DNA of 64,000 nucleotides, from contig CANQCR010000007.1 in assembly GCA_947589735.1 (NCBI GenBank), positions 988 through 64,987 on the forward strand, read 5' to 3'. This DNA is from an uncultured Bacilli bacterium. GTDB taxonomy: Bacteria; Bacillota_I; Bacilli_A; RF39; UBA660. Shown here piece by piece: positions 26,523 to 51,122 of this stretch. Position numbers and translations under genes: made by a program. Within the stretch, counting starts at the first letter, position 1. Each line of letters opens with the position of its first letter. The notes below the pieces were generated by a model. It worked only from the letters and a program-made list of their open reading frames with translations. It was not told the DNA's origin and searched no databases.

Positions 26523-26539
26523 GTACGTAATGTGATTAT

Positions 26540-26763
26540 TAAAGACATTGAACAAGAGGAGTAAAATAACTAGTACTTATTAGAGATGAAAAGTCATAGG
26601 CTGAAAGCTTTTCTTAAAGAAGATTATTTGAAGGTAGCTTGGGAGTTTCATATCTAGATAATAGATATGACGTTTACGGCGTTAACGATAAAGATAAACA
26701 GTTGTTTATGAATAAAGGTGGTACCACGGCTTTTCGTCCTTTTAGGATGAAGCCGTGTTTTTT
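26540..26763 (+). promoter_or_regulatory. T-box riboswitch leader (tRNA-sensing transcription attenuator)
   Basis: AGAGGAGTA and AGAGA stem I elements and a GCTGAAAG distal loop. Specifier region GAAGGTAG (26630-26637). T-box core AAAGGTGGTACCACGG (26714-26729). Terminator CACGGCTT-tt-CGTCCT-ttt-AGGATG-AAGCCGTG plus TTTTTT (26725-26763) overlaps the T-box. Confidence 0.85.
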
Positions 26764-26775
26764 GTAGGTGATAAA

Positions 26776-27498
26776 ATGGACATAAAAAAAGCAAAGGCGA
26801 TATTTAATGATTATGCTAAACAATTTGATTTTAATGATGCAAGTGTTCAAAGGAAATATGCACATACTTACCGAGTTATCGAATATGCGATGGCGATTTC
26901 TTCTTCTTTGAATCTTGATGATCAAATGAAAGAACTTATTTATGTTGCATCTTTGTATCATGATATTGGTCGTTTTAAACAAGCTAGTATATATCATACT
27001 TTTGATGATAGTAAATCACTTGATCACGCTAAGCTAGGTTATGATTTACTAAAAGATGGAATGATTGATTCCTTCGCTAAAAAAGAGGATGCCGAAGTTA
27101 TTCTCTTTGCTGTTTTAAATCATAGTCGTAAAGAAATACCTCAAGGTAGTGAAGATCAAATACTATGCGCCAAAGTCGTCCGGGATGCGGATAAGATGGA
27201 TATTATGAAAGAACAGGGTAATAGTCTTAGTAATGATGTCATCCTTTCTAAAGAATTACTTACATCTTTGAAAAGTAAAGAAGTTTGTGATAATAAAAAT
27301 GTTCATAATGCTGGAGACCATATATTAAGGCTTTTAGGTTTCATCTATGATATTAATTTTAAATACACGTATAAATTCATCTTAAAGGAAGAAATTATTG
27401 ATCAAAAAATACAATTATTAGAACATGCTACACATCAGAATTTAGATGATGTCGCTACCATTTTAAAACAATATATTGAAGGAGTGATAAAATGTTAG
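26776..27498 (+). CDS. HD-domain phosphohydrolase-family protein
   Basis: HTYRV…[10 protein letters not shown] motif. ATG 26776 follows AGGTGA directly after the T-box terminator. The 3' end overlaps the valS start by 7 nt. Confidence 0.75.
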
Positions 27499-30020
27499 AT
27501 ACGAAATATAACCATTTAGAAGTTGAAAAAGGCAAATACGAAGATTGGAAAGAAAAGGGCTACTTTGAAAGTGGTGATTTAAGTAAAAAACCATATTGTA
27601 TTGTTATCCCACCACCTAATGTAACCGGTAAACTTCACCTAGGCCATGCTTGGGACACAACTCTTCAAGATATCCTTATTCGTTATAAAAGAATGGATGG
27701 CTATGATGCTTTATGGGTTCCTGGTATGGATCACGCCGCTATTGCGACAGAAGCTAAAGTTGTTCAAAAGCTTCGCCAAAATGGTGTTGACAAATATGAA
27801 TTAGGACGCGATGGCTTTTTGGATGCTTGCTGGGATTGGACCCATGAATACGCTAAAAATATAAGAGAGCAATGGGCTAAACTAGGTCTTAGTCTCGATT
27901 ACCGCAAGGAAGCTTTTACCCTTGATGAAAACTTGACGAGAGCTGTTAAAAAGGTCTTTGTTGATCTTTATAACGAGGGACTAATTTATCGTGGCGAGCG
28001 GATTATTAACTGGGATCCCGTTGCTAAAACAGCATTATCAAATGAGGAAGTTATTTATAAAGATGATGAGGGAGCATTCTATCATTTAAAATATTTTATT
28101 GAAGGAACTGATGAATACTTGGATGTTGCGACAACTCGTCCTGAAACTTTATTTGGTGATACCGCTGTTGCTGTTAATCCTGATGATGAACGTTATAAAC
28201 ATCTTATCGGTAAAAAAGCTATTTTACCAGTTGTCAATAAAGCTATACCTATTGTTGGTGATGAACATGCTGATCCTACCTTTGGAACTGGTGTTGTTAA
28301 AATAACGCCAGCTCATGATCCTAACGATTTTGAAGTTGGTAATAGACACAATTTAGAGCGTATTGTCGTTATGAATGAGGATGCGACAATGAATGCGAAT
28401 GCCTTAAAGTATGAGGGTATGACAAGAGAAGAATGTAGGGAAGCTCTCCTTAAAGACTTAGAAGAAGCAGGCCTTTTAATCAGTGTTGAAAAAATGGTTC
28501 ATAGTGTTGGTCATAGTGAAAGAACTGACGCTGTGGTTGAACCATATTTATCAAAGCAATGGTTTGTTAAGATGCGGCCACTCGCTGATCGTGTTTTAGA
28601 AAATCAAAAAAATAAGAAGACGAAAGTAAACTTTGTCCCACCACACTATGAAAAGACGATGAATCACTGGATGGAGATAACTTATGATTGGTGTATTTCC
28701 CGCCAATTATGGTGGGGTCACCGGATTCCTGCTTGGTATAAAGGGGACGAAGTATACGTTGGCGTTGATGCGCCATCTGGTGATGGTTGGGTTCAAGATA
28801 ATGATGTTTTAGATACCTGGTTTAGTAGTGCTTTATGGCCATTTGCTACTTTAGGTTGGCCAAATGAAACAGATGATTATAAAAGATATTATCCTAACAG
28901 TGTTTTAGTTACGGGTTATGATATCATTCCTTTTTGGGTTAATAGAATGACTTTCCAAGGCTTGAAGTTTACGGATTCTCGTCCTTTTAAAGATTGCTTA
29001 ATTCACGGTCTTATTCGTGATAAAGAGGGACGCAAGATGAGTAAGTCTTTAGGTAATGGTGTCGATCCTATGGATGTCATTGATGAATATGGTTGTGATG
29101 CCTTAAGATTTTTCTTAACAACTAATTCCGCTCCGGGAGCTGATTTAAGATATGATGAAGAAAAAGTTAAATCATCTTGGAACTTCCTTAATAAGTTATG
29201 GAATGCCTCACGTTTTGTTTTAATGAATCTTGAAGACTTTAAGGAAGAAGATTATACTTTGGATAATTTATCACTTGCCGATAAATGGATTTTAAATCGT
29301 TTAAATAATGTTATTAAAGAAGTAAGAAAAAATATGGATACATATGATTTCCACAACGTTGGTAATACTTTATATGCCTTTATTTGGAATGATTTTTGTG
29401 ATTGGTATATTGAGCTATCAAAAAGTGATATGTCCAAAACAAATAAGAGTGTTTTGCTTTTAGTTTTAACAGATATTATGAAGATGCTACATCCATTCAC
29501 GCCTTATATAACAGAAGAAATCTATCAAATGTTACCAATTAAGGAACAACCATCTATTATGATATCTTCATATCCTAGCATTCGTGATTTTGATTATCAA
29601 AAAGAAGAAGACAAGTTAAATAAGATTTTAGAAGATATTATCGCTATTCGTAATTTAAAAGCGACAAACAATATTACCAAACAAGCTAAGGTAAAATATG
29701 TAACTGATGCTAGTATTGAAAATATTTACCGTTCGCAGTTAAAAATCAAAGATGAAAATATTTTAACGGATAGCGGTGATAACTATTTAACGAGCAATTA
29801 TAAATCTAAAAATATTGATATTACATATTACTATGAAGGAACTAAAGAAGATGATAGTAAGAAAGATGATGAAATCAAGAAGTTAGAAGAGTCTATCGCT
29901 CGCAGGGAGAAACTTTTAAGTAATGAAAATTACGTTTCTAAAGCACCAGCGCAAATTGTCGATGCTGATAGAAAAAAACTAGCTGAAGAAAAAGAGCGTT
30001 TAGCGCTTCTTAAGGGTTAA
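27492..30020 (+). CDS. valS: Valyl-tRNA synthetase
   Basis: [14 protein letters not shown] (HIGH), KMSKSLGN (KMSKS) and a C-terminal coiled coil. 842 aa. Confidence 0.96.
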
Positions 30021-30021
30021 G

Positions 30022-30378
30022 ATGTTATTTCTTTATTATCCGAAATGTTCAACTTGTAAGCGCGCTAAAGCGTGGCTAGATAATCATCATCTTTCTTATG
30101 ATTCTCGTGATATCATTTTAGATAATCCTAAATATGCAGAATTAGAAAAATGGATAAAAGATAGTGGCGTAGATGTAAAACGTTTCTTTAATACCAGTGG
30201 TCTAAAATATAAAGAATTAGGCTTAAAAGATAAGTTAAGTGGGTTATCTTTGGAAGAGAAGATTAAACTTTTGTCAAGTGATGGTATGCTTGTCAAAAGA
30301 CCTCTTATAATTGGCGATAATATTACCTTAGTGGGTTTTAATGAAAAGGAGTGGGAGAAAGCATTATGCAAGAATTAA
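30022..30378 (+). CDS. ArsC/Spx/MgsR-family protein (YffB-like)
   Basis: 118 aa. N-terminal YYPKCSTCKRAKAWL and C-terminal LVKRPLI, typical of the ArsC family. Confidence 0.75.
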   Translation: MLFLYYPKCSTCKRAKAWLDNHHLSYDSRDIILDNPKYAELEKWIKDSGVDVKRFFNTSGLKYKELGLKDKLSGLSLEEKIKLLSSDGMLVKRPLIIGDNITLVGFNEKEWEKALCKN

Positions 30379-30795: not shown

Positions 30796-32787
<1,992 letters not shown>

Positions 32788-32818: not shown

Positions 32819-35014
32819 ATGCAAGAATGGAATGGTTTTAAAGGAACCAAATGGCAACAAGTAATTGATGTTGAGGATTTTATTTTAAATAATTATCAAG
32901 AATATACCGGTAGTTCGGATTTCTTAAAGGGAATTAGCAAGAAAACGACAAGATTATTGAGCCGTGTCTCTAAAATTCTTGGCAAGGAAGAAATTACGGG
33001 TATTTTGGATGTTGAAACATCAGCTTTAACGAGCATTGATGCTTTTGATCTTGGATATATTGATAAAAAAAATGAAGTTATCAGTGGTATTCAGACTGAT
33101 GATCCTTTAAAACAGGCTGTTAATACTCTTACATTGGATACCTCTCTTAATGTACTTAAAAATAATGGCTATCGTTTTGACCGTGAAGTGTTAGAACATT
33201 ATCGAGATTTTAATGATACGTACGAAGCAAGTCTTAATGAGGCCTACACTAAAGAAATTGCAAAGTTTAAAGAGGTTCACTTATTAGAGGGAATGCCTGA
33301 TACTTATGGTCGTGGTTTTATGATTGGCGATTATCGCCGGTTACCATTATATGGCCTTGATTATTTAATTGCTAAAAAAGAGCATGATTTAAATCGTTTA
33401 AGAAAAGATATCAATTATTCAATGATTCGAGCTCGTGAAGAGGTTATTAAACAGATAAAGTCCTTAAAAAAATTAAAATTGTTAGCATCAAGATATGGCT
33501 TTGATATCTCACGTCCAGCAAGTAATGCGAAAGAAGCTTTTCAATGGCTATATTTTGCTTATCTTGCCGTTAGTAAAGAAACGTGTGGAGCTTCTATGCC
33601 TATTGGCAATAATAGTGCATTTTTAGATATATACATTGCTAGAGATTTAGAATTAGGCATTTTAAATGAAGAAGAAGCCCAAGAATTAGTTGATCAATTT
33701 ATGTTAAAACTACGTTTAATCAGATGTGTTCGTAGTGATGATTTTAAAACAATTTTTATGGGTCAAAATACACTTGTTACTGAGACGATTGGTGGCGTTA
33801 ATAAGGAGCACTCAATTATAACTAAAACAGCTTATCGTTTCTTAAATACCATTGAGACATTAGGTGTTTATCCTACTCCAGCTTTTGCTATTTTATGGTC
33901 TGTTAAGATGCCTAATAATTTTAAAAGATATTTAGCTAAAGTAATGATGAAACATAATTGTTTACGATTTATTAATGCGGATAATCTAGGCAGTAGCAAT
34001 TATGCTACAAATGGTTTAGTAAGTACTTCAAAAATAGGTAAACAAATCGATTATTATGGCGGTAGTTTTAATCTTCCTAAGGCTTTGCTTTATGCCATTA
34101 ATGGGGGATGTGATGAGTTAACAGGCGAACTTGTTATCGATGGTGTAGAAAAATTAGATGGTGATGTTTTAGTTTATTCTAAGGTTGTTCGTAATTTCGC
34201 TATCGTCTTAAAAAAATTAATCACTATTTATGCGGATAATTTGAATATGATTCATTATATGCATGATAAATATGGCTATGAAAGTTCACTTATGGCATTT
34301 AATGATACTGTTGTTGAACGTTATATGACATTTAATATTGCTGGTTTTGCTACCCTTGTGGATTCTTTGTCAGCTATCCGGTTTGCTAAAGTAAAAGTTA
34401 ATCGTGATGAGAATGGTTTAAGCACCGATTTTACCATCACTGGTGATTTTCCACATTATGGAAATAATCTTGATGATGTCGATAAATTGGCTAGTGATAT
34501 TGCTAAACTTATCAATAGGGAATTATCCGGTCATCATTTGTATCGTAATGCTAATATTAAGCTTGGTTTTCAAAGCCTTGGCATGAGTATTAAGTATGGG
34601 TCAAATACCGGTTCAACACCAGATGGCCGTTTTAGGGGTAGTGCATATCCTTTTAACGCTGATCCTGTTGGTAATAAAAATACAAGGGGATTGCTTCGGA
34701 CTTTAAAAAGTGTAATGAAAATACCAAGTAAATTATGTAGTGGCGGTATTGCTACGACAGTCAATATTACCGCTTTAGCGCTTGGTAGTAAAAGAACGGA
34801 ACGTGCTGAAAATCTAATCAGTCTTTTAGATGGCTATTTTAAACAAAACGGTAGTGAACTTGAAATTAATATCATTGATAAAAAGACTATCCAGGATAAT
34901 GATAAGACAAAGGATATAGTGTTATGCGTTGGAGGAATTGTTACGCGTCAGAATGCTTTACCAGATACTTCAAAAGAATATTTACTTGACCTAACATATA
35001 ATACAAAATTATGA
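32819..35014 (+). CDS. Pyruvate formate-lyase (glycyl radical enzyme) homolog lacking the catalytic Cys-Cys; probable pseudoenzyme
   Basis: Collinear with PflB over the full length (YGRGFMIGDYRR, GKQIDYYGGSFNLPKALLYAINGG, HYMHDKYGYE, TGSTPDGR). ACCVSP is replaced by NGLVST, and RVSGY by CVGGI. Confidence 0.8.
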   Translation: MQEWNGFKGTKWQQVIDVEDFILNNYQEYTGSSDFLKGISKKTTRLLSRVSKILGKEEITGILDVETSALTSIDAFDLGYIDKKNEVISGIQTDDPLKQAVNTLTLDTSLNVLKNNGYRFDREVLEHYRDFNDTYEASLNEAYTKEIAKFKEVHLLEGMPDTYGRGFMIGDYRRLPLYGLDYLIAKKEHDLNRLRKDINYSMIRAREEVIKQIKSLKKLKLLASRYGFDISRPASNAKEAFQWLYFAYLAVSKETCGASMPIGNNSAFLDIYIARDLELGILNEEEAQELVDQFMLKLRLIRCVRSDDFKTIFMGQNTLVTETIGGVNKEHSIITKTAYRFLNTIETLGVYPTPAFAILWSVKMPNNFKRYLAKVMMKHNCLRFINADNLGSSNYATNGLVSTSKIGKQIDYYGGSFNLPKALLYAINGGCDELTGELVIDGVEKLDGDVLVYSKVVRNFAIVLKKLITIYADNLNMIHYMHDKYGYESSLMAFNDTVVERYMTFNIAGFATLVDSLSAIRFAKVKVNRDENGLSTDFTITGDFPHYGNNLDDVDKLASDIAKLINRELSGHHLYRNANIKLGFQSLGMSIKYGSNTGSTPDGRFRGSAYPFNADPVGNKNTRGLLRTLKSVMKIPSKLCSGGIATTVNITALALGSKRTERAENLISLLDGYFKQNGSELEINIIDKKTIQDNDKTKDIVLCVGGIVTRQNALPDTSKEYLLDLTYNTKL

Positions 35015-35556
35015 TAGGAAAAATTAGTTCAATTGATCCTATGTCTTTTAATAGTGGCCCAGGTATTAGATTTGTCATCATGGTGGATGAGGTTGAGAAT
35101 ATTACACTAACGCCACAAAATACGATTGATAGAATTAGAAAGTTTCGACCATATTTTGGGCCAGATGATGGAGGATTAACATTTAAAGGTAAAAATATTT
35201 TTCAAGAGATAGATTATATCAATGAGACTTGCCATATTGCTCATAAAGCTGGCATTACGACTTGTCTTATGACGAATGGACATAATTATGAGAAAAATCG
35301 TGTCCAATTTAGAGATATTGACTTTGTTATACTAGAAATTTCTAGTATACCGTTATATAATTATGGTAAGTTAGATGATAAAACATTTGACCGAATGGAA
35401 ATGTTAATTATGGACACATTAGCTAATGGTAAGAAAGTCTTTTTCTATCCTAGTCTTGATGGTGGTATCATTGATAAAGATGATTACGTTAGAAAATTAA
35501 AAAAATATGCCCATAGTTTTAGTTCAGAAATTGAAGTTAAAATAAGTGATACATAA
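35011..35556 (+). CDS. PFL-activating-enzyme homolog lacking the radical-SAM CX3CX2C motif; probable pseudoenzyme
   Basis: GPGIRF, GGLTFKG and GITTCLMTNG align to PflA. The cluster-binding segment (…GCLMRCLYCHN…) is replaced by IMVDEVENITLTPQN, with no Cys. The protein is only 181 aa. Its ATG overlaps the upstream TGA (ATGA). Confidence 0.75.
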   Translation: MIGKISSIDPMSFNSGPGIRFVIMVDEVENITLTPQNTIDRIRKFRPYFGPDDGGLTFKGKNIFQEIDYINETCHIAHKAGITTCLMTNGHNYEKNRVQFRDIDFVILEISSIPLYNYGKLDDKTFDRMEMLIMDTLANGKKVFFYPSLDGGIIDKDDYVRKLKKYAHSFSSEIEVKISDT

Positions 35557-35566
35557 AAAGGAGGAT

Positions 35567-36652
35567 ATGATGAAAAGGAAATATAAAATAATGGCTGCCA
35601 TTTATTTTGTTATTATGGCTCTTGTTCTTTTTCAAAGTGATAATGTTAAAATGTTTGCAACAGCCTTAGATTATATCGCTTGTGGTAGCGCTACAGGCAT
35701 ACCTAAACCTATTCCTCAAGTAATAACAATTGCTTATACACTTCTTATGGTTGGAGCACCGATCGTTTTGGTTGTATCATCAATTATGACTTTAATTAAG
35801 TCAATTGCTGATAGTGATCAAGAAAAAACAGTAAAAGCTAGGAATAATTTGTTTCGAAAAGCAGCTCTAGCGGTTTTAATATTTCTAACAGCGTCAATTG
35901 TACGTTTTGCTCTTGACAAAGTAGCTAGTACAGCCAGTGATAAAAGCACGCTTGCTAAATGTCTTAATTGCTTTGTTGCCTTTAATGGACGCGATTGCAA
36001 AAAATCTAGCAGTGGATCAGAAACAGAACAAGGAACGTATAATGAAACATATAGTAATGTTGCTCAAGCAGGTTTAGGAACAGGAAAACCTAAAGGAACG
36101 AGAACTATTTTGATAGGTGATTCAAGAACAGTTGGAATTTGTGGTATAGACTCATCTGCTGAAACATCTGTACAAAAATGCCGAGATGTTTTGGCAATTA
36201 GAAAAGGCGCAATGGGTTATTATTGGTTTAGAGATACTGCCGTACCAGCCGTTACCAAACAGCTTAATGAGCATCCGCAAACAGTTTATAATATTGTTAT
36301 TTTAATGGGAGCAAATGATTGTGGAAAAATTAAACATCATATGGCGGAAAGTAGAGCAAATTCATACATAGATAAATTAGAAGAATTGGCCGATGGTGAT
36401 TGGAAGAATCATAGTATTGTGTTTGTGTCAGTTGGTCCAATAAAAGTTGAAGCTACTGAATATATGGATAGGACTAGTCTCAACAAATTTAATTCAACAA
36501 TCGAAAAAAGAATAAAAGATAGTAAAAAAAGAAATCTTTTCTGGTGTGATATTCGTGATAAAGTTAATTGGGAATATGGTGACACAGTACACTACTCTAT
36601 ACCAAATGGTGTAAAGGCTCATTATGACGGAGTTATGAACTATTGTTTATAA
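35567..36652 (+). CDS. Paralog A: signal peptide plus two-helix membrane module plus Cys motif, fused to an SGNH/GDSL hydrolase domain
   Basis: AGGAGG at 35559-35564, ATG at 35567 or 35570. The N-module is shared with 36720-37169 and 37262-38341. C-terminal SGNH blocks: LIGDSRT (I), KGAMGY (II), LMGANDCG (III), GDTVHY (V). Confidence 0.8.
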   Translation: MMKRKYKIMAAIYFVIMALVLFQSDNVKMFATALDYIACGSATGIPKPIPQVITIAYTLLMVGAPIVLVVSSIMTLIKSIADSDQEKTVKARNNLFRKAALAVLIFLTASIVRFALDKVASTASDKSTLAKCLNCFVAFNGRDCKKSSSGSETEQGTYNETYSNVAQAGLGTGKPKGTRTILIGDSRTVGICGIDSSAETSVQKCRDVLAIRKGAMGYYWFRDTAVPAVTKQLNEHPQTVYNIVILMGANDCGKIKHHMAESRANSYIDKLEELADGDWKNHSIVFVSVGPIKVEATEYMDRTSLNKFNSTIEKRIKDSKKRNLFWCDIRDKVNWEYGDTVHYSIPNGVKAHYDGVMNYCL

Positions 36653-36676
36653 AAAGGTATATAATTATACCTTTTT
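36653..36676 (+). terminator. Rho-independent terminator after paralog A
   Basis: AAAGGTATA-taat-TATACCTTT followed by TT. A close copy of the module occurs after paralog C. Confidence 0.65.
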
Positions 36677-36677
36677 G

Positions 36678-36686
36678 TGTTATAAT
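36678..36686 (+). promoter_or_regulatory. Extended -10 promoter element TGTTATAAT for paralog B
   Basis: An exact TGnTATAAT match immediately after the terminator. It belongs to a terminator-promoter module also found at 38343-38378. Confidence 0.5.
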
Positions 36687-36719
36687 TGTATTAAGATATA
36701 GAATATGGTTGTGATTTAT

Positions 36720-37169
36720 ATGAAATATAATAGACTAACAAAAGTTGCCTTTATGCTATTTGCATTATTCATTTTATTAGCAGTAAAATCGAATGTTTAT
36801 GCACTTGATTATGTCGCTTGTGGTAGTGCAACAGGAATTCCTAAACCCCTTCCTCAAATGACAACGATTGCGTATACTTTCTTAATTGTTGGAGCTCCAG
36901 TTGTTCTTATCATATCGGCAGTGATAACTTTAATAAAAGCTAATGCTAGTGGAAATCCTGATAATATCTTAAAAGCTAAAGACAAATTGTTTAAGAAATT
37001 TATTCTAACAGGTTTTATTTTCCTAATTGCCGGTGTTGTACAATTTGCCATAACTAGAGTTACTAGTACAAATTCTGATAAAGCAACTGTTGGAAAATGT
37101 ATGAGTTGTTTTTTATATTTTTCTAATTGCAATGATTCAGATTCTGGTAATGATGTTTTTGATGGGTAA
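36720..37169 (+). CDS. Paralog B: N-terminal membrane module only (headless copy)
   Basis: VYALDYVACGSATGIPKPLPQ, two hydrophobic helices separated by KAKDKLFKKF, and CMSCFLYFSNC. It ends shortly after the Cys motif. Confidence 0.75.
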   Translation: MKYNRLTKVAFMLFALFILLAVKSNVYALDYVACGSATGIPKPLPQMTTIAYTFLIVGAPVVLIISAVITLIKANASGNPDNILKAKDKLFKKFILTGFIFLIAGVVQFAITRVTSTNSDKATVGKCMSCFLYFSNCNDSDSGNDVFDG

Positions 37170-37261
37170 TTTACAAAACTTTTTACTTATGATTATTATT
37201 TTTTTCATGATATTTAATTTGTATATTTTACAATTAGTTTTAATTATATAGTGTGGTGAAT

Positions 37262-38341
37262 ATGAGAAAAAAGAAAAATTTAACGTTTGGGGCATTTTTA
37301 GTTATATGTAGTGCTTTATTGATTTGTAATATTGATAACGTTTATGCTATTGACTATGTCGCTTGTGGTAGTGCAACAGGAATTCCAAAGCCTGTTCCAC
37401 AATTAATAACAATTTTATATACCATCCTTATGGTAGGAACACCTATTGTTCTTATCGTGTTTTCAATAATTACTTTGATAAAAGCAGTCTTAAGTGATAA
37501 TCCTGATAATGTTCTTAAAGCTAGAGGGAAATTGTTTAAAAAGTTTATTATTGCGGCAGTTATCTTTTTAACTTCTGGTCTTGTAAGGTTTGTTATAACA
37601 CGTGTAACAAGCAATAGTAAAGATACTAATACCGTTGGAGAATGTTTAAGTTGCTTCTTATATTTTGAAAATTGCGGAAAGTCAAACAGTGGAATTGAAG
37701 TTGAACAGGGAACTTATGGCGAAGCATATAGTAATGTAGCTTATGCAGGTGATGGTAGCGGTAATGCCTTAACACCAGAGCAAGTTGAGGAAGAACTTCG
37801 AAAAATGAAAAAAGCTCCAACTTATAGTGAATTGTTAGAGCTTGCTAAAAAGAATTATAAAATGGATGAATCTGTTTTTAAAATAGTATTTGGTTGGGCT
37901 ATTAATGAAGGTTATGATAGCGCAGTGAATCTTGAAGGTAAAGTTGATCATTATCTAGGATATTTGTGTGATTGTATAGGTATAAACTTATATATGGGTT
38001 TAGATAGTGTAAACTCTGCTTATACACTTGTTGAAGAAATCCGTGGTGGTGGCCCTAGAGACTTATATAATGTAGATCGTATATCAGCAAAGGCCGATGC
38101 TGCAATAAGTAATCCAAGTGATTATGCAGCACAATATAAAGGAATGTATTTGGCATTAAAATATCCTGATGAAAATGTACATAATTGTTACGGTCCAACG
38201 CAAAGCGAACAAAACTTCTATGCCAAAATGGGAGGAAAAGTATATTACCAAGGTAAGGCATATCCATCTGCTCCACATTATCCAATTCAAATATGGACAC
38301 AATGGTACACGGGAATAAAAAACTGGAAAAAAGACAAATAA
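37262..38341 (+). CDS. Paralog C: the same membrane module fused to an unrecognised C-terminal domain of about 190 aa
   Basis: VYAIDYVACGSATGIPKPVPQ, KARGKLFKKF loop, CLSCFLYFENC. The linker EQGTYGEAYSNVAYAG is shared with paralog A. I recognise no motif in the C-terminal domain. Confidence 0.75.
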   Translation: MRKKKNLTFGAFLVICSALLICNIDNVYAIDYVACGSATGIPKPVPQLITILYTILMVGTPIVLIVFSIITLIKAVLSDNPDNVLKARGKLFKKFIIAAVIFLTSGLVRFVITRVTSNSKDTNTVGECLSCFLYFENCGKSNSGIEVEQGTYGEAYSNVAYAGDGSGNALTPEQVEEELRKMKKAPTYSELLELAKKNYKMDESVFKIVFGWAINEGYDSAVNLEGKVDHYLGYLCDCIGINLYMGLDSVNSAYTLVEEIRGGGPRDLYNVDRISAKADAAISNPSDYAAQYKGMYLALKYPDENVHNCYGPTQSEQNFYAKMGGKVYYQGKAYPSAPHYPIQIWTQWYTGIKNWKKDK

Positions 38342-38342
38342 A

Positions 38343-38368
38343 AAAGGTATATTTTATATCTTTTTTTT
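38343..38368 (+). terminator. Terminator after paralog C (weaker copy of the 36653 hairpin)
   Basis: AGGTATA-ttt-TATATCT (one G.U pair) followed by T8. Confidence 0.5.
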
Positions 38369-38393: not shown

Positions 38394-41300
38394 ATGAAAA
38401 AGAAAATGACAGTTGATGGTAATGAAGCCTGCAGTTATACCGCATATATGTTTACAGAAGTAGCCGGTATTTACCCTATAACACCATCTAGTCCGATGGC
38501 TGAACACGTTGATGAGATGAGTGACCAAAGATTAAATCTTTTCAATAGTCATGTCAAAGTCGTTGAGATGCAAAGTGAAGCAGGTGCAGCAGGATTTGTT
38601 CATGGCTCTTTAAAAGCAGGATGTTTAACAACGACATTTACGGCTAGTCAAGGTCTTCTTTTAATGATTCCTAATATGTATAAAATAGCTGGGGAAATGT
38701 TACCTTGTGTTATCCATGTAGCAGCAAGAAGTCTATCGACGCATGCTCTAAGTATTTTTGGCGATCATCAAGATATATATGCATGCCGGGCAACAGGTTT
38801 TGCTATGTTAGCTTCTTCATCTGTTCAAGATGCTGCTTATTTAAGTGCGGTTGCCCACTTATCAAGTATTAAAGCAAGTCTACCTTTTATGCATTTCTTT
38901 GATGGCTTTAGAACAAGTCATGAGATTCAAAAGATAGATGTGTTACAAGCTTCCGATTATGCTGATATGCTAGATTATGATGCTTTAAATAAATTCCGTA
39001 ATCGAGCTTTAAATCCGCATCACCCTCTAACTTATGGAACAGCTCAAAATGAAGATATTTACTTTCAAGTAACAGAAGCACGAAATAAGTATTATGATGC
39101 TCTACCTGATATCGTTAATGATTATATGGAAAAAATTAATGCTAAAGCAGAAACATCCTATAAGCCATTTAATTATTATGGTGGCGTTAATGCTACCAAG
39201 GTTATTGTAGCGATGGGATCTGTTTGTGAAACAATTAAAGAAGTTATTAAAGATAATAATAATCTAGGTCTTATTGAAGTTCATTTATATCGCCCATTTA
39301 GTACTAAATACTTACTAAATGTATTACCAAAGACGGTTAAGAATATCGCTGTTTTAGATCGAACAAAAGAAGCAGGTAGTAATGGTGAACCACTATATCT
39401 AGATATTGTTAATGCCTTAAAAGGAAAAGATATAAACATTGTTGGTGGCCGTTATGGATTATCAAGTAAAAATACAACCCCAGCTGATATCAATGCCGTA
39501 TATCATATGCTAGATAATCCTGTTAATAATTTTACAATTGGTATTGTTGATGATGTAACTAATTTAAGTCTAAAACCTATCCCAATTGAAACAGAAAAAA
39601 GTAGTGAATGGCTATTATATGGTTATGGTAGTGACGGTATGGTTGGTGCTTCTAAATCAATTATTAAATTAATTGGCGATAATACCGATGATTATGTTCA
39701 AGGATATTTCCAATATGATTCGAAAAAAAGTGGCGGTGTTACATGTAGTCATTTACGGTTTAGTCCTAATCCTATTCATTCGGCTTATTATGTTTCTAAA
39801 CCATCATTAGTTGTTATTTCTAAAGATAGTTATTTAGAGGAATACGATTTATTAGAGGATTTAGATGAAGGTGCTAAAGTCATTATCAATTCGATTCATA
39901 GTGCTGATGAAGTTGATGCGATGTTAAATCATCATTTAAGGAAGTTATTTATTGATAAGAAAGCTAAAGTATATTTGATCAATGCCTATGATTTAGCTGA
40001 TCAAGTAGGATTAAAGGGTAAAATTAGTACCATTATGGAAAGCGCTATTATGCGACTAACGGATATTTTACCTTATGATGTCGCTTTAGATAAAATGAAA
40101 GATGGCATTGATAAGAAATTTGCTCGTAAGGGTGATAGTGTTGTTAAAGCTAATTATGAAGCTATTACTTTAGTTAGTGAAAATCTATTGCCAGTAACTA
40201 TCAGTTCATATGATGCTACTTCTAACGATGAAGCATTATCACTTGTTAAAACGATTATGAAACGTAAAGGTGATACTTTAAAGACATCTGATTTTGTTAA
40301 TCGGGCTGATGGTGCTTTTGAAAGTGGAACAAGCGCTACTGAGAAAAGATATATCACTTCTTTAACGCCATCATGGATTAAGGAAAATTGTTCTAATTGT
40401 AATCAATGTTCTTTATATTGTCCACATGGTGTGATTAGACCTTTCTTATTAGATGAAGAAGAGTATAAGCAGGCTCCAGAAGAGATTCAAAAGCGATGCG
40501 TTAAAGCTATCGGTATGAATTATTATTATATTGTTAGTGTATGTGTAGCTAATTGTACTGGCTGTGGGGTATGTGTTAATAATTGCCCAGGTATGCGTTC
40601 TAATAAGGCTCTTATTATGGATAAGATAAATCCTAAAGAACAAGATATATTTGAATATCTAGATAACAATATTAAGCCAAAACCAATTGATAATATTTAT
40701 ACGACGAAAAATAGTCAATTTGTTAAGCCTAAATTTGCCTTTTCAGGGGCTTGCGCTGGATGTGGAGAACCAGCTTATATCAAGTTATTAACCCAATTAT
40801 TTGGTGAACACTTGATTATTGCTAATGCGACTGGCTGTTCATCAATCTATGGTGGTAGTGCGCCTTCAACTCCTTATACTGTTCCTTGGGCTAGTAGTTT
40901 ATTTGAAGATAATGCTGAATATGGTTATGGTATGCTTGTTGCTAATAATATTATGCGGAAGCGTATTGCTAGCTTGATGGAACAAAATATGGATAATGAA
41001 AATAGTGCCTTATTTAAAAAATGGTTAGACAATCCTGAAAGTTATGAAAATACTAAAGAAGTTTATGACAATCTAACCGATAATCTACCACAAGAATTAT
41101 TAGAATTAAAAGATTATATAACCACTCGTAATATTTGGTGTATCGGTGGGGATGGTTGGGCTTATGATATCGGCTTTAGTGGTATTGACCATGTCCTTGC
41201 AAGTTCTGATAATATCAAAATTTTAGTTTTAGATAGTCAAGTATATTCTAATACGGGTGGCCAATCATCTAAAGCTAGTCCAAAAGGCGCTATCGCATCA

Positions 41301-41759
41301 TTCGCATCAACCGGTAAGAAAACAAATAAAAAGGATTTAGCTCGTATTGCGATGGCTTATCCACACGTTTATGTAGCGCAAGTATCTTTAGGAGCTAATC
41401 CAATGCAAGTTGTTAAAGCTTTTAAAGAAGCTAATGAATATAATGGACCAGCTATTATAATTGCCTATACGCCATGTATTTCACACGGTATTAAAGGTGG
41501 TATGGAACATAGTGTTGATATGGAAAAATTAGCTACTAATTCGGGTTATTTCCTAACTTTTAGAAGGCATCCGGAAATGGGCTTTACGCTTGATAGCAAG
41601 AATGTTGACTTTGATTTATATGAAGAGTTTTTAAATAGTCAAACAAGATTCAATATGTTAAAAGTTATCAATCCTAATAAAGCCAAAGACTTATTAGAGG
41701 CTAATAAAGATAACGCTATTAAAACATTTAATTACTATGAAAAATTAGATAAAGAGTAA
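38394..41759 (+). CDS. nifJ: Pyruvate:ferredoxin (flavodoxin) oxidoreductase
   Basis: 1121 aa. Two ferredoxin-type clusters (CSNCNQCSLYCP, CTGCGVCVNNCP). TPP-binding region GCSSIYGG…GGDGWAYDIG. Confidence 0.95.
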   Translation: MKKKMTVDGNEACSYTAYMFTEVAGIYPITPSSPMAEHVDEMSDQRLNLFNSHVKVVEMQSEAGAAGFVHGSLKAGCLTTTFTASQGLLLMIPNMYKIAGEMLPCVIHVAARSLSTHALSIFGDHQDIYACRATGFAMLASSSVQDAAYLSAVAHLSSIKASLPFMHFFDGFRTSHEIQKIDVLQASDYADMLDYDALNKFRNRALNPHHPLTYGTAQNEDIYFQVTEARNKYYDALPDIVNDYMEKINAKAETSYKPFNYYGGVNATKVIVAMGSVCETIKEVIKDNNNLGLIEVHLYRPFSTKYLLNVLPKTVKNIAVLDRTKEAGSNGEPLYLDIVNALKGKDINIVGGRYGLSSKNTTPADINAVYHMLDNPVNNFTIGIVDDVTNLSLKPIPIETEKSSEWLLYGYGSDGMVGASKSIIKLIGDNTDDYVQGYFQYDSKKSGGVTCSHLRFSPNPIHSAYYVSKPSLVVISKDSYLEEYDLLEDLDEGAKVIINSIHSADEVDAMLNHHLRKLFIDKKAKVYLINAYDLADQVGLKGKISTIMESAIMRLTDILPYDVALDKMKDGIDKKFARKGDSVVKANYEAITLVSENLLPVTISSYDATSNDEALSLVKTIMKRKGDTLKTSDFVNRADGAFESGTSATEKRYITSLTPSWIKENCSNCNQCSLYCPHGVIRPFLLDEEEYKQAPEEIQKRCVKAIGMNYYYIVSVCVANCTGCGVCVNNCPGMRSNKALIMDKINPKEQDIFEYLDNNIKPKPIDNIYTTKNSQFVKPKFAFSGACAGCGEPAYIKLLTQLFGEHLIIANATGCSSIYGGSAPSTPYTVPWASSLFEDNAEYGYGMLVANNIMRKRIASLMEQNMDNENSALFKKWLDNPESYENTKEVYDNLTDNLPQELLELKDYITTRNIWCIGGDGWAYDIGFSGIDHVLASSDNIKILVLDSQVYSNTGGQSSKASPKGAIASFASTGKKTNKKDLARIAMAYPHVYVAQVSLGANPMQVVKAFKEANEYNGPAIIIAYTPCISHGIKGGMEHSVDMEKLATNSGYFLTFRRHPEMGFTLDSKNVDFDLYEEFLNSQTRFNMLKVINPNKAKDLLEANKDNAIKTFNYYEKLDKE

Positions 41760-41761
41760 CA

Positions 41762-41786
41762 AAAAAGGGATTAAATATCCCTTTTA
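41762..41786. terminator. Bidirectional terminator between nifJ and sigK
   Basis: AAAAGGGAT-taaat-ATCCCTTTT. The right arm contains the sigK stop codon. Confidence 0.7.
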
Positions 41787-42476
41787 ATTGTCTTTATTTT
41801 TAATATATTCCTTTAACATTTTCGTTAAAGCTCTTTTTTCAATTCTTGATACATAACTACGAGAGATGTTAAACATTTTAGCAATTTCTTTTTGGGTCAT
41901 TTTATCTTCATCATTTAAACCATACCTTTTAGTAATTATTTCTTTTTCCCTTGTTGTTAAAACTTTAAAGTATTTATCTAATAATTTAATATTATTTTGG
42001 TTATGAATATCAAGGGCAAAATCAGGATTAGGTGTTTTTAAAATATCAAGGAGGGTAATTTCATCGCCTTCTTTATCATAACCAATAGCTTCATTAAGAC
42101 TAATATTGCGGTTGTTACGCTTATTTGAACGATAATACATAAGAATTTCATTTTCAATACATTTAGCAATATAGGTTGTGAGTTTAGCGTTATGTTTCGT
42201 ATTAAAAGAGTCAATACCTTTAATAAGTCCAATGGTTCCAATACTGATAAGATCATCGATATCTTCATTTTTATTATCGTATTTTTTAACAATGTGGGCG
42301 ACTAAACGCAGGTTGTGTTCAATCAAAGTGTTGCGGGCATTTGCGTCACCATTTTTCATTTTCTCTAAAAGGTCTTCTTCTTCTTCCTTTGATAGCGGAT
42401 CAGGGAAAACATTGTTAGAGTAGGCTGCACAAAAAAGATGAAAATCTTTGAATAGCCACTTTAAGAGTTTAAACAT
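41784..42476 (-). CDS. sigK: Sporulation sigma factor pro-sigma-K (uninterrupted)
   Basis: The pro-sequence followed by YSNNVFPDPLS, IEHNLRLVAHIVKKY and SRSYVSRIEKRAL matches B. subtilis SigK (from memory) better than SigE. Confidence 0.85.
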   Translation of the reverse strand: MFKLLKWLFKDFHLFCAAYSNNVFPDPLSKEEEEDLLEKMKNGDANARNTLIEHNLRLVAHIVKKYDNKNEDIDDLISIGTIGLIKGIDSFNTKHNAKLTTYIAKCIENEILMYYRSNKRNNRNISLNEAIGYDKEGDEITLLDILKTPNPDFALDIHNQNNIKLLDKYFKVLTTREKEIITKRYGLNDEDKMTQKEIAKMFNISRSYVSRIEKRALTKMLKEYIKNKDN

Positions 42477-50099: not shown

Positions 50100-51122
50100 A
50101 TGAAAAATATATATGGGGTAACGATTAAGGAACTGGAAGACTACTTTACTGCTAAGGGTGAAGGTAAGTTTAAAGCTACCCAAGTATTTGAATGGTTATA
50201 TAAAAAAAGAATCACTTCTTTTTCTAATATGCGCAATGTAAGTAAAAAAACGATGCAAGATTTAGCTAATGATTTTGTTATAGAACCTTTAGAAATAATT
50301 ACAAAAAAAAGTGATGTTGACGTTGTTAAATATCTTTTTCATTTAAGTGATGATAATAAAATTGAAGCAGTTTTAATGAAACATGATTATGGCAATAGTT
50401 TATGTATTTCAACCCAAGTTGGTTGCAATATGGGATGTCACTTTTGTGAAAGTGGTCGTTTAAAAAAGGTTCGTAATCTTGAAGTGTCCGAAATGGTAAG
50501 ACAAATATTAGCTGTTGAAGCTGATTTAAACATTCGTATCTCGCATCTTGTTTTAATGGGCATTGGCGAACCTTTTGACAATTATGATAATGTTATATCA
50601 TTCATTGATATCATTAATACACCTAAAGGACTTGATTTGGGAAGCCGTCACATTACTATATCAACGTGTGGCATTGTCCCAAAGATTGAAACTTTTATGA
50701 AGTATGATAAACAAGTTAACTTAGCCATTTCTCTTCATGCTCCTAATAATGAAATACGTTCAAGCATCATGGAGATTAATAAGGCTTATCCTTTAGAAAA
50801 ACTAATTCCTACTATAAAAAAGTATGTTGAGGTAACTAAAAGACGTGTAACTTTTGAATATATAATGTTAAAAGGAGTTAACGATAGTGTTCAAGATGCT
50901 AATGAATTAAGTGATTTATTAAGGGGCATTAATTGTTACGTCAATTTAATACCTTATAATGAAACAAGTCATATTGAGTATAAAAAGAGCAGTCAAGAAC
51001 AAATTATGAAGTTTTTTGACACATTGAAAAAAAGGGGCATAAACGTTACGATTCGTCGTGAATTTGGCAGCAAAGTTAATGCTGCTTGTGGACAATTAAG
51101 ATCAAATTACGAGGAGGCTTAA
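50100..51122 (+). CDS. rlmN: 23S rRNA/tRNA (adenine-C2)-methyltransferase RlmN (radical SAM)
   Basis: CNMGCHFCESG (CX3CX2C), MGIGEP, and the C-terminal catalytic Cys context AACGQL. Confidence 0.93.
   Translation: MKNIYGVTIKELEDYFTAKGEGKFKATQVFEWLYKKRITSFSNMRNVSKKTMQDLANDFVIEPLEIITKKSDVDVVKYLFHLSDDNKIEAVLMKHDYGNSLCISTQVGCNMGCHFCESGRLKKVRNLEVSEMVRQILAVEADLNIRISHLVLMGIGEPFDNYDNVISFIDIINTPKGLDLGSRHITISTCGIVPKIETFMKYDKQVNLAISLHAPNNEIRSSIMEINKAYPLEKLIPTIKKYVEVTKRRVTFEYIMLKGVNDSVQDANELSDLLRGINCYVNLIPYNETSHIEYKKSSQEQIMKFFDTLKKRGINVTIRREFGSKVNAACGQLRSNYEEA

Follow-up and report, generated by a model that had tools for sequence, protein, structure and literature searches.

We analysed a stretch of 64,000 nucleotides from an uncultured Bacilli bacterium (GTDB lineage Bacteria; Bacillota_I; Bacilli_A; RF39; UBA660), which corresponds to positions 988 to 64,987 of the forward strand of contig CANQCR010000007.1 in the assembly GCA_947589735.1. 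The whole stretch is called the window below, and coordinates given without a locus name refer to it. An intact open reading frame (ORF) at positions 32819..35014 of the plus strand encodes a full-length homolog of pyruvate formate-lyase (PFL) of 731 amino acids, designated PFL-psi. Its stop codon overlaps the start codon of a second plus-strand gene in the sequence ATGA. This second gene, at 35011..35556, encodes a degenerate homolog of the PFL-activating enzyme of 181 amino acids, and was designated PflA-psi. The pair is preceded by ligA (30805..32787, plus strand). It is followed by three genes for membrane-anchored proteins and by the gene of a NifJ-type pyruvate:ferredoxin oxidoreductase (PFOR; 38394..41759, plus strand).

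PFL-psi contains the domains PF02901 (E = 9e-127) and PF01228 (E = 5e-11) of the Pfam database. A preliminary description of this DNA, made from its letters, had held the protein to be collinear with E. coli PflB. A phmmer search against PDB gave an end-to-end collinear alignment with this enzyme (1h16/1cm5; E ~1e-161, 38% identity), and a full-length alignment with 38lb, a canonical PFL that is closer to it (E = 2e-175). The five conserved blocks that had been quoted were all present, at amino acids 163, 231, 407, 479 and 597. The score against the equivalog model TIGR01255 was 711 bits, which is below the cutoff of 994.2. A structure of PFL-psi was predicted with AlphaFold2 (AF2) from the alignment of its clade, with a predicted local distance difference test score (pLDDT) of 89.6 and a predicted template modelling score (pTM) of 0.90. 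The model was nearly superimposable on E. coli PFL (2pfl), with a template modelling (TM) score of 0.97 and a root-mean-square deviation of 1.7 Å, and the closed barrel and the whole PFL fold were kept. These predictions showed that the full-length fold and the length of the enzyme are preserved in the modelled PFL-psi. Nine contigs, which come from at least four independent samples, encode the identical protein, and therefore PFL-psi is not an assembly artefact. The contigs encoding it carry four synonymous differences, a divergence too small for a within-species comparison.

The catalytic residues of PFL-psi were assigned from HMMER alignments and from a MAFFT alignment of 120 homologs together with E. 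coli PflB (NC_000913). At the position of the catalytic Cys418-Cys419, PFL-psi has Gly399-Leu400 (34013..34018, plus strand; Gly399 for Cys418 at 34013-34015 and Leu400 for Cys419 at 34016-34018). The A-C-C-V-S of PflB was aligned to N-G-L-V-S, and the NGLVST segment begins at amino acid 398. The glycyl-radical loop RVSGY (R731-Y735) reads CVGGI (C703-I707; 34925..34939, plus strand). The preliminary description had noticed both substitutions. The replacement of the cysteines was found in two independent alignments, and the rigorous alignments placed no cysteine at the active site. For the glycyl loop the earlier reading was right and can be refined: the residue at the Gly734 position is still a glycine (G706), and the flanks alone have changed.

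The substrate-binding residues were replaced as well. Arg176 and Arg435 of PflB are the pyruvate ligands, and Asn145/Gln146 belong to the pocket for the adenine of coenzyme A (CoA) (PMC13450708). On the plus strand, Phe167 (33317..33319) stands at the Arg176 position, Ser416 (34064..34066) at the Arg435 position, and Glu136 (33224..33226) and Ala137 at the Asn145/Gln146 positions. Further replacements are Glu400 to Ile385 and Trp333 to Leu319. Asn145 was invariant in 61 of the 61 canonical homologs, and was missing from all 54 members of the clade described below, in which the Cys pair is lost. Of the residues that characterize PFL, namely Cys418-Cys419, R-V-S-G-[YF] and Arg176/Arg435/Asn145, PFL-psi has none in the expected form. 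The thiyl-radical cysteine of the Cys loop, which characterizes the superfamily of glycyl radical enzymes (GREs), is also absent; the position of Cys419 is occupied by Leu and is variable in the clade. To our knowledge, the Cys-loop thiyl radical is required by every characterised GRE. The thiyl radical mechanism of these enzymes is described in PMC13450708. The C418A/C419A variant of PflB still receives the glycyl radical, but is unable to cleave pyruvate in vivo (PMC12338860). Because the Cys pair, the substrate sites and, as shown below, the activase motifs are all lost, and because the C418A/C419A variant is dead, canonical PFL chemistry is judged to be excluded in PFL-psi for several independent reasons. 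We infer that radical cleavage of pyruvate by this protein is impossible. The same had been concluded earlier from the missing cysteines, and the additional losses support that conclusion.

PflA-psi matched TIGR02493 with E = 2e-15 and 57 bits, below the cutoff of 231.75, and it matched the activating enzyme structure 3c8f in a phmmer search. When it was aligned with E. coli PflA and the canonical activases of related genomes, a deletion of 16 residues was found to take out the CX3CX2C motif. The GGE motif for S-adenosylmethionine (SAM) is changed to F-[KT]-G, and a stretch of about 21 C-terminal residues is gone. PflA-psi therefore lacks CX3CX2C and GGE, the motifs expected of an activase, but it keeps the N-terminal DGxGxR loop (GPGIR) and the partial triosephosphate isomerase (TIM)-barrel fold of radical-SAM enzymes. 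The AF2 model (pLDDT 86.4) had the PFL-activating enzyme 3cb8 as its best structural match (TM 0.80, E = 1e-10). A database search yielded 33 clusters of this family, mostly of 195–200 amino acids (~198). The 16-residue deletion and the replacement of GGE were present in 24 of the 24 aligned members (the canonical P0206 excepted). The segments GPGIR, IRKFRPYFGP-GGGVTF and CHKAGI are invariant in the family, and IRKFRPYFGP and SLPLYNYNN are new, family-specific motifs. These results indicate that PflA-psi is a catalytically dead activase that forms a conserved family of its own. In the 3CB8 complex, the DGxGxR loop touches the glycyl-loop peptide. The retained DGxGxR-type loop suggests that PflA-psi still docks on PFL-psi.

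The conservation of PflA-psi was not uniform. The ratio of non-synonymous to synonymous substitution rates (dN/dS, omega) was 0.16–0.19 between the window and a second allele of the locus described below, and 0.44 between the loci L090 and L178. The protein is shortened to 181, 145 or 127 amino acids in some lineages, and it is absent at L091, L003 and L179, where full-length PFL-psi is retained. Since PFL-psi persists where PflA-psi was lost, its function is independent of PflA-psi. The idea that the retention of Gly734 is tied to the presence of PflA-psi was rejected, as L179 and L091 have the glycine without PflA-psi. A GRE is expected to have a cognate activase that binds [4Fe-4S] and SAM; PflA-psi lacks these features, and no other candidate was found within the 64-kb window. 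A weak activase match at 50649-51077 lies inside the ORF 50100-51122, which is probably RlmN, since it is syntenic with an RlmN-type gene at L003.

Among the best 120 database homologs of PFL-psi, 59 were without the Cys pair, and the position of Gly734 was occupied by Gly in 51 of these 59. Three fragments and two independent outliers were excluded; the remaining 54 clusters were monophyletic in the neighbour-joining analysis (bootstrap 40/40) and were divided into two subclades (40/40 each). The loop reads R-N-x-G-[YC] in the 38 members of subclade A, and RLSGC, GLSGC or RYAEC in the 16 members of subclade B; the RYAEC group has Glu at the Gly734 position. The protein length was 730–751 amino acids in all 54 members. 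The orthologs in related genomes carried the same class of substitution at full length, with neither frameshift nor sporadic loss of PFL-psi. The root-to-tip distance was 0.93–1.13 for the Cys-less clade and 0.66 for its canonical relatives, which shows a faster rate in the former.

In total, 156 columns are conserved in the canonical and Cys-less groups alike, and 73 columns that are invariant in canonical PFLs are relaxed, including 419, Arg435, Glu400 and much of the CoA-pocket segment 141-150. Relative to canonical PFLs, windowed conservation had its minima around 390-419, where the Cys loop lies, and around 720-749 in the glycyl-radical domain. Three columns gained constraint in the clade (N199, N459 and D560). 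Beside the old active site, two substitutions are shared across the clade, Cys418 to Gly (94%) and Phe431 to Tyr (100%). Other positions vary: 419 is L, I, V, S, C, G, T, M or F, 435 is S, T, N, V or I, 176 is F, K, Y or M, and 400 is I, V or L. The former active site looks like one that was remodelled with mostly uncharged or hydrophobic residues (R176 to F, E400 to I/V, W333 to I, C419 to L/I/V), as in the filling of a cavity, and not like a new catalytic constellation.

The omega value for PFL-psi was 0.14 between the window and the second allele (L093 and L176), and 0.16 in the independent pair of L090 and L178. In the former comparison it was 0.08–0.18 throughout the protein, except for the last 31 codons, containing the glycyl loop and the C-terminus, where it was 0.88. 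Because omega nears 1 only in these 31 codons, the rest of the protein is considered to be under selection. The full length of PFL-psi is kept at a GC content of ~31% (in the window), while the LigA proteins of the clade have diverged to 65–82% identity. The monophyly of the 54 clusters, the preserved length and the omega values of 0.14–0.16 argue that PFL-psi is maintained by purifying selection and is not a decaying pseudogene. PFL-psi thus shows two properties by which a pseudoenzyme is recognized, clear homology without the catalytic residues and purifying selection across species. The preliminary description had preferred a conserved pseudoenzyme or a repurposed scaffold over a decaying pseudogene, on the grounds of an intact ORF and conserved fold-defining blocks, and this preference is upheld by the clade, the omega values and the predicted fold. 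The dead adjacent activase, the lost substrate-binding residues and the strain-variable block described below go beyond that description.

The gene order around PFL-psi was compared among related genomes. The ligA gene lies upstream of PFL-psi at 11 of 11 loci (the window, L093, L176, L002, L006, L090, L091, L092, L003, L179 and L178). PFOR lies downstream at all nine loci that reach far enough; the sequences of L176 and L178 end before this point. PFOR is either the next gene after PFL-psi or is separated from it by PflA-psi and the genes of one to three membrane-anchored proteins. In related uncultured Bacilli, Erysipelotrichaceae and Mycoplasmatota metagenome-assembled genomes (MAGs), the order ligA-pflB-pflA was found with the Cys-Cys pair in PflB and CX3CX2C in PflA (L007, L008, L035 and L175), and ligA is thus the conserved left neighbour of PFL-psi and of canonical pflB. 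No PFOR gene was present within 10 kb downstream of the canonical pflBA in L007 and L035. Because the relatives with canonical enzymes carry ligA-pflB-pflA at the same locus, PFL-psi and PflA-psi are positional orthologs of vertical origin that lost their chemistry in place, and not diverged duplicates. The preliminary description had asked whether a canonical pflB exists elsewhere; no canonical pflB, pflA or focA was found elsewhere in the 64-kb window, to which the search for canonical pflB and pflA was confined. A profile search of genome contigs with the clade had at least one clade locus (L006, from the MAG UBA5578) among the matches listed.

The genes between ligA and PFOR form a strain-variable haplotype block (32860..38360), which contains PFL-psi, PflA-psi and the three genes Mem1, Mem2 and Mem3. 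A second allele of this block was found in two independent assemblies, the Logan contig L093 (4050-10400) and the NCBI MAG GCA_947588685.1 (L176; 7850-13979), which are 98.6% identical to each other. The flanks, consisting of 7.8 kb upstream (with valS to ligA) and the 5' end of PFOR, are 96–99.5% identical to the window at the nucleotide level, and LigA has 99.4% amino acid identity with a synonymous divergence (dS) of 0.12. Within the block, the identity was 72–86% for PFL-psi (dS 0.94), 77–85% for PflA-psi and 47–75% for the Mem genes. The identity falls abruptly in the initial ~100 nucleotides of PFL-psi, which contain the breakpoint, and is restored at the start of PFOR. The pattern was reversed between L090 (5985-11793) and L178 (2234-8070), where PFL-psi is 87.7% and LigA 76.8% identical. 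This reversal means that the interval from ligA to PFOR is a mosaic that recombines among related lineages.

The Mem genes lie in tandem on the plus strand and share an N-terminal membrane module with the motif ALDYVACGSATGIPKP. Mem1 (35546..36652) is restricted to the lineage and anchored in the membrane, and its C-terminal domain is a hydrolase domain of the SGNH/GDSL type. Mem2 (36705..37169) is a paralog that has in common with it only the N-terminal module. Mem3 (37253..38341) has the same module and another C-terminal domain without a family match. In total, 22 homologs were found, one of them with an M23 peptidase domain, and one paralog at L093 and L176 gave a faint GDPD match. Diversifying selection may plausibly act on the Mem proteins, and PFL-psi is perhaps carried along by hitch-hiking; the omega of PFL-psi was 0.14 even across these divergent alleles. 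When PFL-psi, PflA-psi and Mem1-3 were scanned with PADLOC and PHROGs, neither a known defence system nor an origin from phages was supported.

Loss of the catalytic motifs was also detected outside the main clade. P0050 (SC and GIGGY), P0087 (CS and RTEGY) and P0111 are full-length homologs in which the motifs are lost in part or completely, and lie inside a canonical clade. At the locus of P0087 (L174), ligA is followed by the PFL homolog and then by a P-type ATPase gene, without pflA. A profile search of 1.84 billion representatives, in which the main clade corresponds to one representative at 50% identity, detected two further independent cases, P0207, in which CC is changed to TP and R435 to S, and P0210, in which CC is changed to YD with an N-terminal extension of ~70 amino acids. 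P0210 may be eukaryotic or organellar. From these distributions, full-length PFLs that lost their chemistry have arisen at least four times.

Several other features were recorded in the window. A terminator scan detected a bidirectional, terminator-like hairpin at 41763-41785, between PFOR and a convergent sigma-70-family gene (41784-42476). It was the sole convincing intergenic terminator-like site from valS to PFOR. Promoter and terminator scans were otherwise at the background level, and the operon was not defined by them. An HD-domain gene (26755-27498), which overlaps valS (27492-30020), is preceded by a T-box leader (26539-26744; 106 bits), and a terminator-like hairpin at 26732-26752 fits the attenuator of this T-box. 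Downstream of valS, a gene of the ArsC/Spx family (30022-30378) and a small gene with a desulfoferrodoxin domain (30351/30366-30731) overlap each other. Among six more distant clade loci (L002, L006, L090, L091, L092 and L003), tblastn gave no match for the ArsC-family gene, and the desulfoferrodoxin-like gene was present only at L002. The 3' end of the 23S rRNA gene, cut by the edge of the window, is at 1-826, and the 5S rRNA gene is at 886-990. No tRNA genes were found in the 64 kb.

PFL-psi and PflA-psi were compared with known systems. PFL-psi is like PflB (EC 2.3.1.54; TIGR01255; 2PFL/1H16) in length, domain order, fold and position after ligA, but differs in the absence of Cys418/Cys419, Arg176, Arg435, Asn145, Glu400 and Trp333, in the CVGGI loop, and in the activase without an Fe-S motif. 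PflA-psi resembles PflA (TIGR02493; 3CB8) in the GPGIR loop, the partial TIM barrel and the place right after the PFL gene, but it has no CX3CX2C, its GGE is replaced, its C-terminal segment is gone and it has motifs of its own. The C418A/C419A variant of E. coli PflB (1CM5; PMC12338860) is, like PFL-psi, full-length, folded and without the Cys pair. However, this variant keeps the substrate sites, RVSGY and a working activase, and obtains a glycyl radical, all of which PFL-psi lost. GrcA, a spare glycyl-radical domain, is an example of the non-canonical use of PFL parts, but it is small, has a functional radical glycine and needs Cys419 of PflB, whereas PFL-psi is a whole barrel without the chemistry. 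The inactive homologs of the R1 subunit of ribonucleotide reductase in beta-herpesviruses (e.g., M45 of murine cytomegalovirus) are pseudoenzymes on a related 10-stranded alpha/beta barrel, and have a role in protein interaction. M45 serves as an analogy; it is viral, belongs to another branch of the fold superfamily and acts in the inhibition of cell death, and no homology to PFL-psi beyond the fold is claimed. Taken together, PFL-psi appears to work like no characterised GRE, lacking the chemical features of the superfamily and retaining those of the fold.

From these results, we consider it likely that PFL-psi descends from the pflB that this locus carried ancestrally, is catalytically dead and is kept by purifying selection for a non-catalytic scaffold or binding role, and that it forms with PflA-psi a pseudoenzyme pair of one uncultured low-GC lineage of gut Bacilli. 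In this lineage, PFOR would have taken over the conversion of pyruvate to acetyl-CoA, as its conserved position suggests. PFL-psi would then act as a folded scaffold or binding protein, to which its conservation points, and it might, with low confidence, engage in a protein-protein interaction at the pyruvate/PFOR node. In this scheme, PflA-psi would serve as a dispensable accessory and would dock on the C-terminal finger domain through the retained GPGIR loop. Several points weigh against this interpretation. The case for a retained function is built on conservation, and the constraint is partly relaxed, with 62% identity for PFL-psi against 79–89% for its neighbours in most comparisons. The link to PFOR comes from synteny, and variable genes lie between PFL-psi and PFOR at most loci. 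The Gly at 418 and the Tyr at 431, conserved in the clade, might mark a new ligand site. In addition, the genome outside the window may contain a canonical pflB or pflA, a radical donor like GrcA or a further activase.

A more specific form of the non-catalytic role is that the dead PFL and the dead activase were co-opted as a complex in a recombining, strain-variable cassette with the adjacent membrane-anchored hydrolases, for example as a cell-envelope or phage-interaction module between ligA and PFOR. We think this rather unlikely. If it is true, a former radical enzyme of central metabolism would now serve in structure or recognition, and balancing or diversifying selection would act on it.

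It is unlikely that PFL-psi is a neofunctionalised enzyme, in which the PFL barrel was repurposed for a new non-radical reaction or for binding a different small molecule in its remodelled pocket. The full fold with its closed barrel in the model, the purifying selection throughout the barrel and the two clade-wide substitutions adjoining the old active site (C418 to G and F431 to Y) would all fit such an enzyme. A catalytic site is expected to be conserved, however, and the other former active-site positions vary within the clade; most of the replacing residues are uncharged or hydrophobic, and just three columns gained constraint.

We regard as quite improbable the proposal that PFL-psi is a functionless relic, either an inactivated pflB awaiting decay or an ORF kept open indirectly, for instance through translational coupling to the genes downstream. 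As expected of a relic, PFL-psi has a higher rate of evolution than its neighbours, several sublineages have a shortened PflA-psi or none (198, 181, 145, 127 and 0 amino acids), and inactivation recurs in other PFL lineages (P0050/P0087, P0207 and P0210). A relic would not be expected, on the other hand, to hold 730–751 amino acids in 54 clusters at this low GC content while LigA diverged, to have low omega values in two independent pairs with a rise to near 1 only in the last 31 codons, or to share 156 conserved columns with active PFLs. Coupling cannot account for conservation at the amino acid level over 2.2 kb.

There is little chance that PFL-psi is kept as a membrane partner, docking in the manner of PflB on FocA and gating or anchoring FocA or the Mem proteins. 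The docking on FocA is the sole described non-catalytic role of PflB (PMC12559229), and at most loci of subclade A the Mem genes lie between PFL-psi and PFOR and are exchanged with PFL-psi as a block. Against this, focA is missing from the window, the modelled interface for FocA is the face of the CoA site (PMC12559229), where the segment corresponding to E. coli 141-150 is relaxed in the clade, the loci of group B have PFL-psi without Mem genes, and the domain content of the Mem proteins looks like that of extracellular hydrolases.

That PFL-psi is still a radical enzyme, with a radical at Gly706 from an activase encoded elsewhere and with catalysis without the Cys pair or with a donor in trans, has hardly any likelihood: the glycine is kept in 51 of the 59 homologs without Cys-Cys, C418A/C419A PflB accepts the glycyl radical (PMC12338860) and another activase may lie in the genome beyond the window, but that variant is catalytically dead (PMC12338860), GREs work by a thiyl radical (PMC13450708), the flanks of the glycine are variable and near-neutral (omega 0.88), the RYAEC group has Glu in its place, the substrate-binding residues are lost and the cognate activase is without the cluster motif. 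Compared with a conserved, non-catalytic PFL-psi, all four of the latter alternatives agree less well with a former active site that varies, a glycyl loop close to neutrality, a CoA face that is relaxed and conservation of this depth.

In full-text literature searches and in the passages of a 2026 GRE review that matched our keywords, we found no Cys-less or pseudoenzyme clade of GREs. The same sources gave no GRE in which the cysteine, the substrate site and the activase chemistry were lost together. GREs have been treated as purely catalytic, and a lineage-wide pseudoenzyme pair of enzyme and activase would be the first for the superfamily and would suggest that the PFL scaffold has a non-catalytic function. 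On the rather unlikely reading of a co-opted complex, the origin of full-length Cys-less PFLs at least four times would further imply a general, unrecognised moonlighting function of PFL that outlives catalysis. For the organisms themselves, at least one clade protein is automatically annotated as "Pyruvate-formate lyase", and metabolic reconstructions of these gut Bacilli would wrongly predict formate, while their pyruvate oxidation probably proceeds via the adjacent PFOR.

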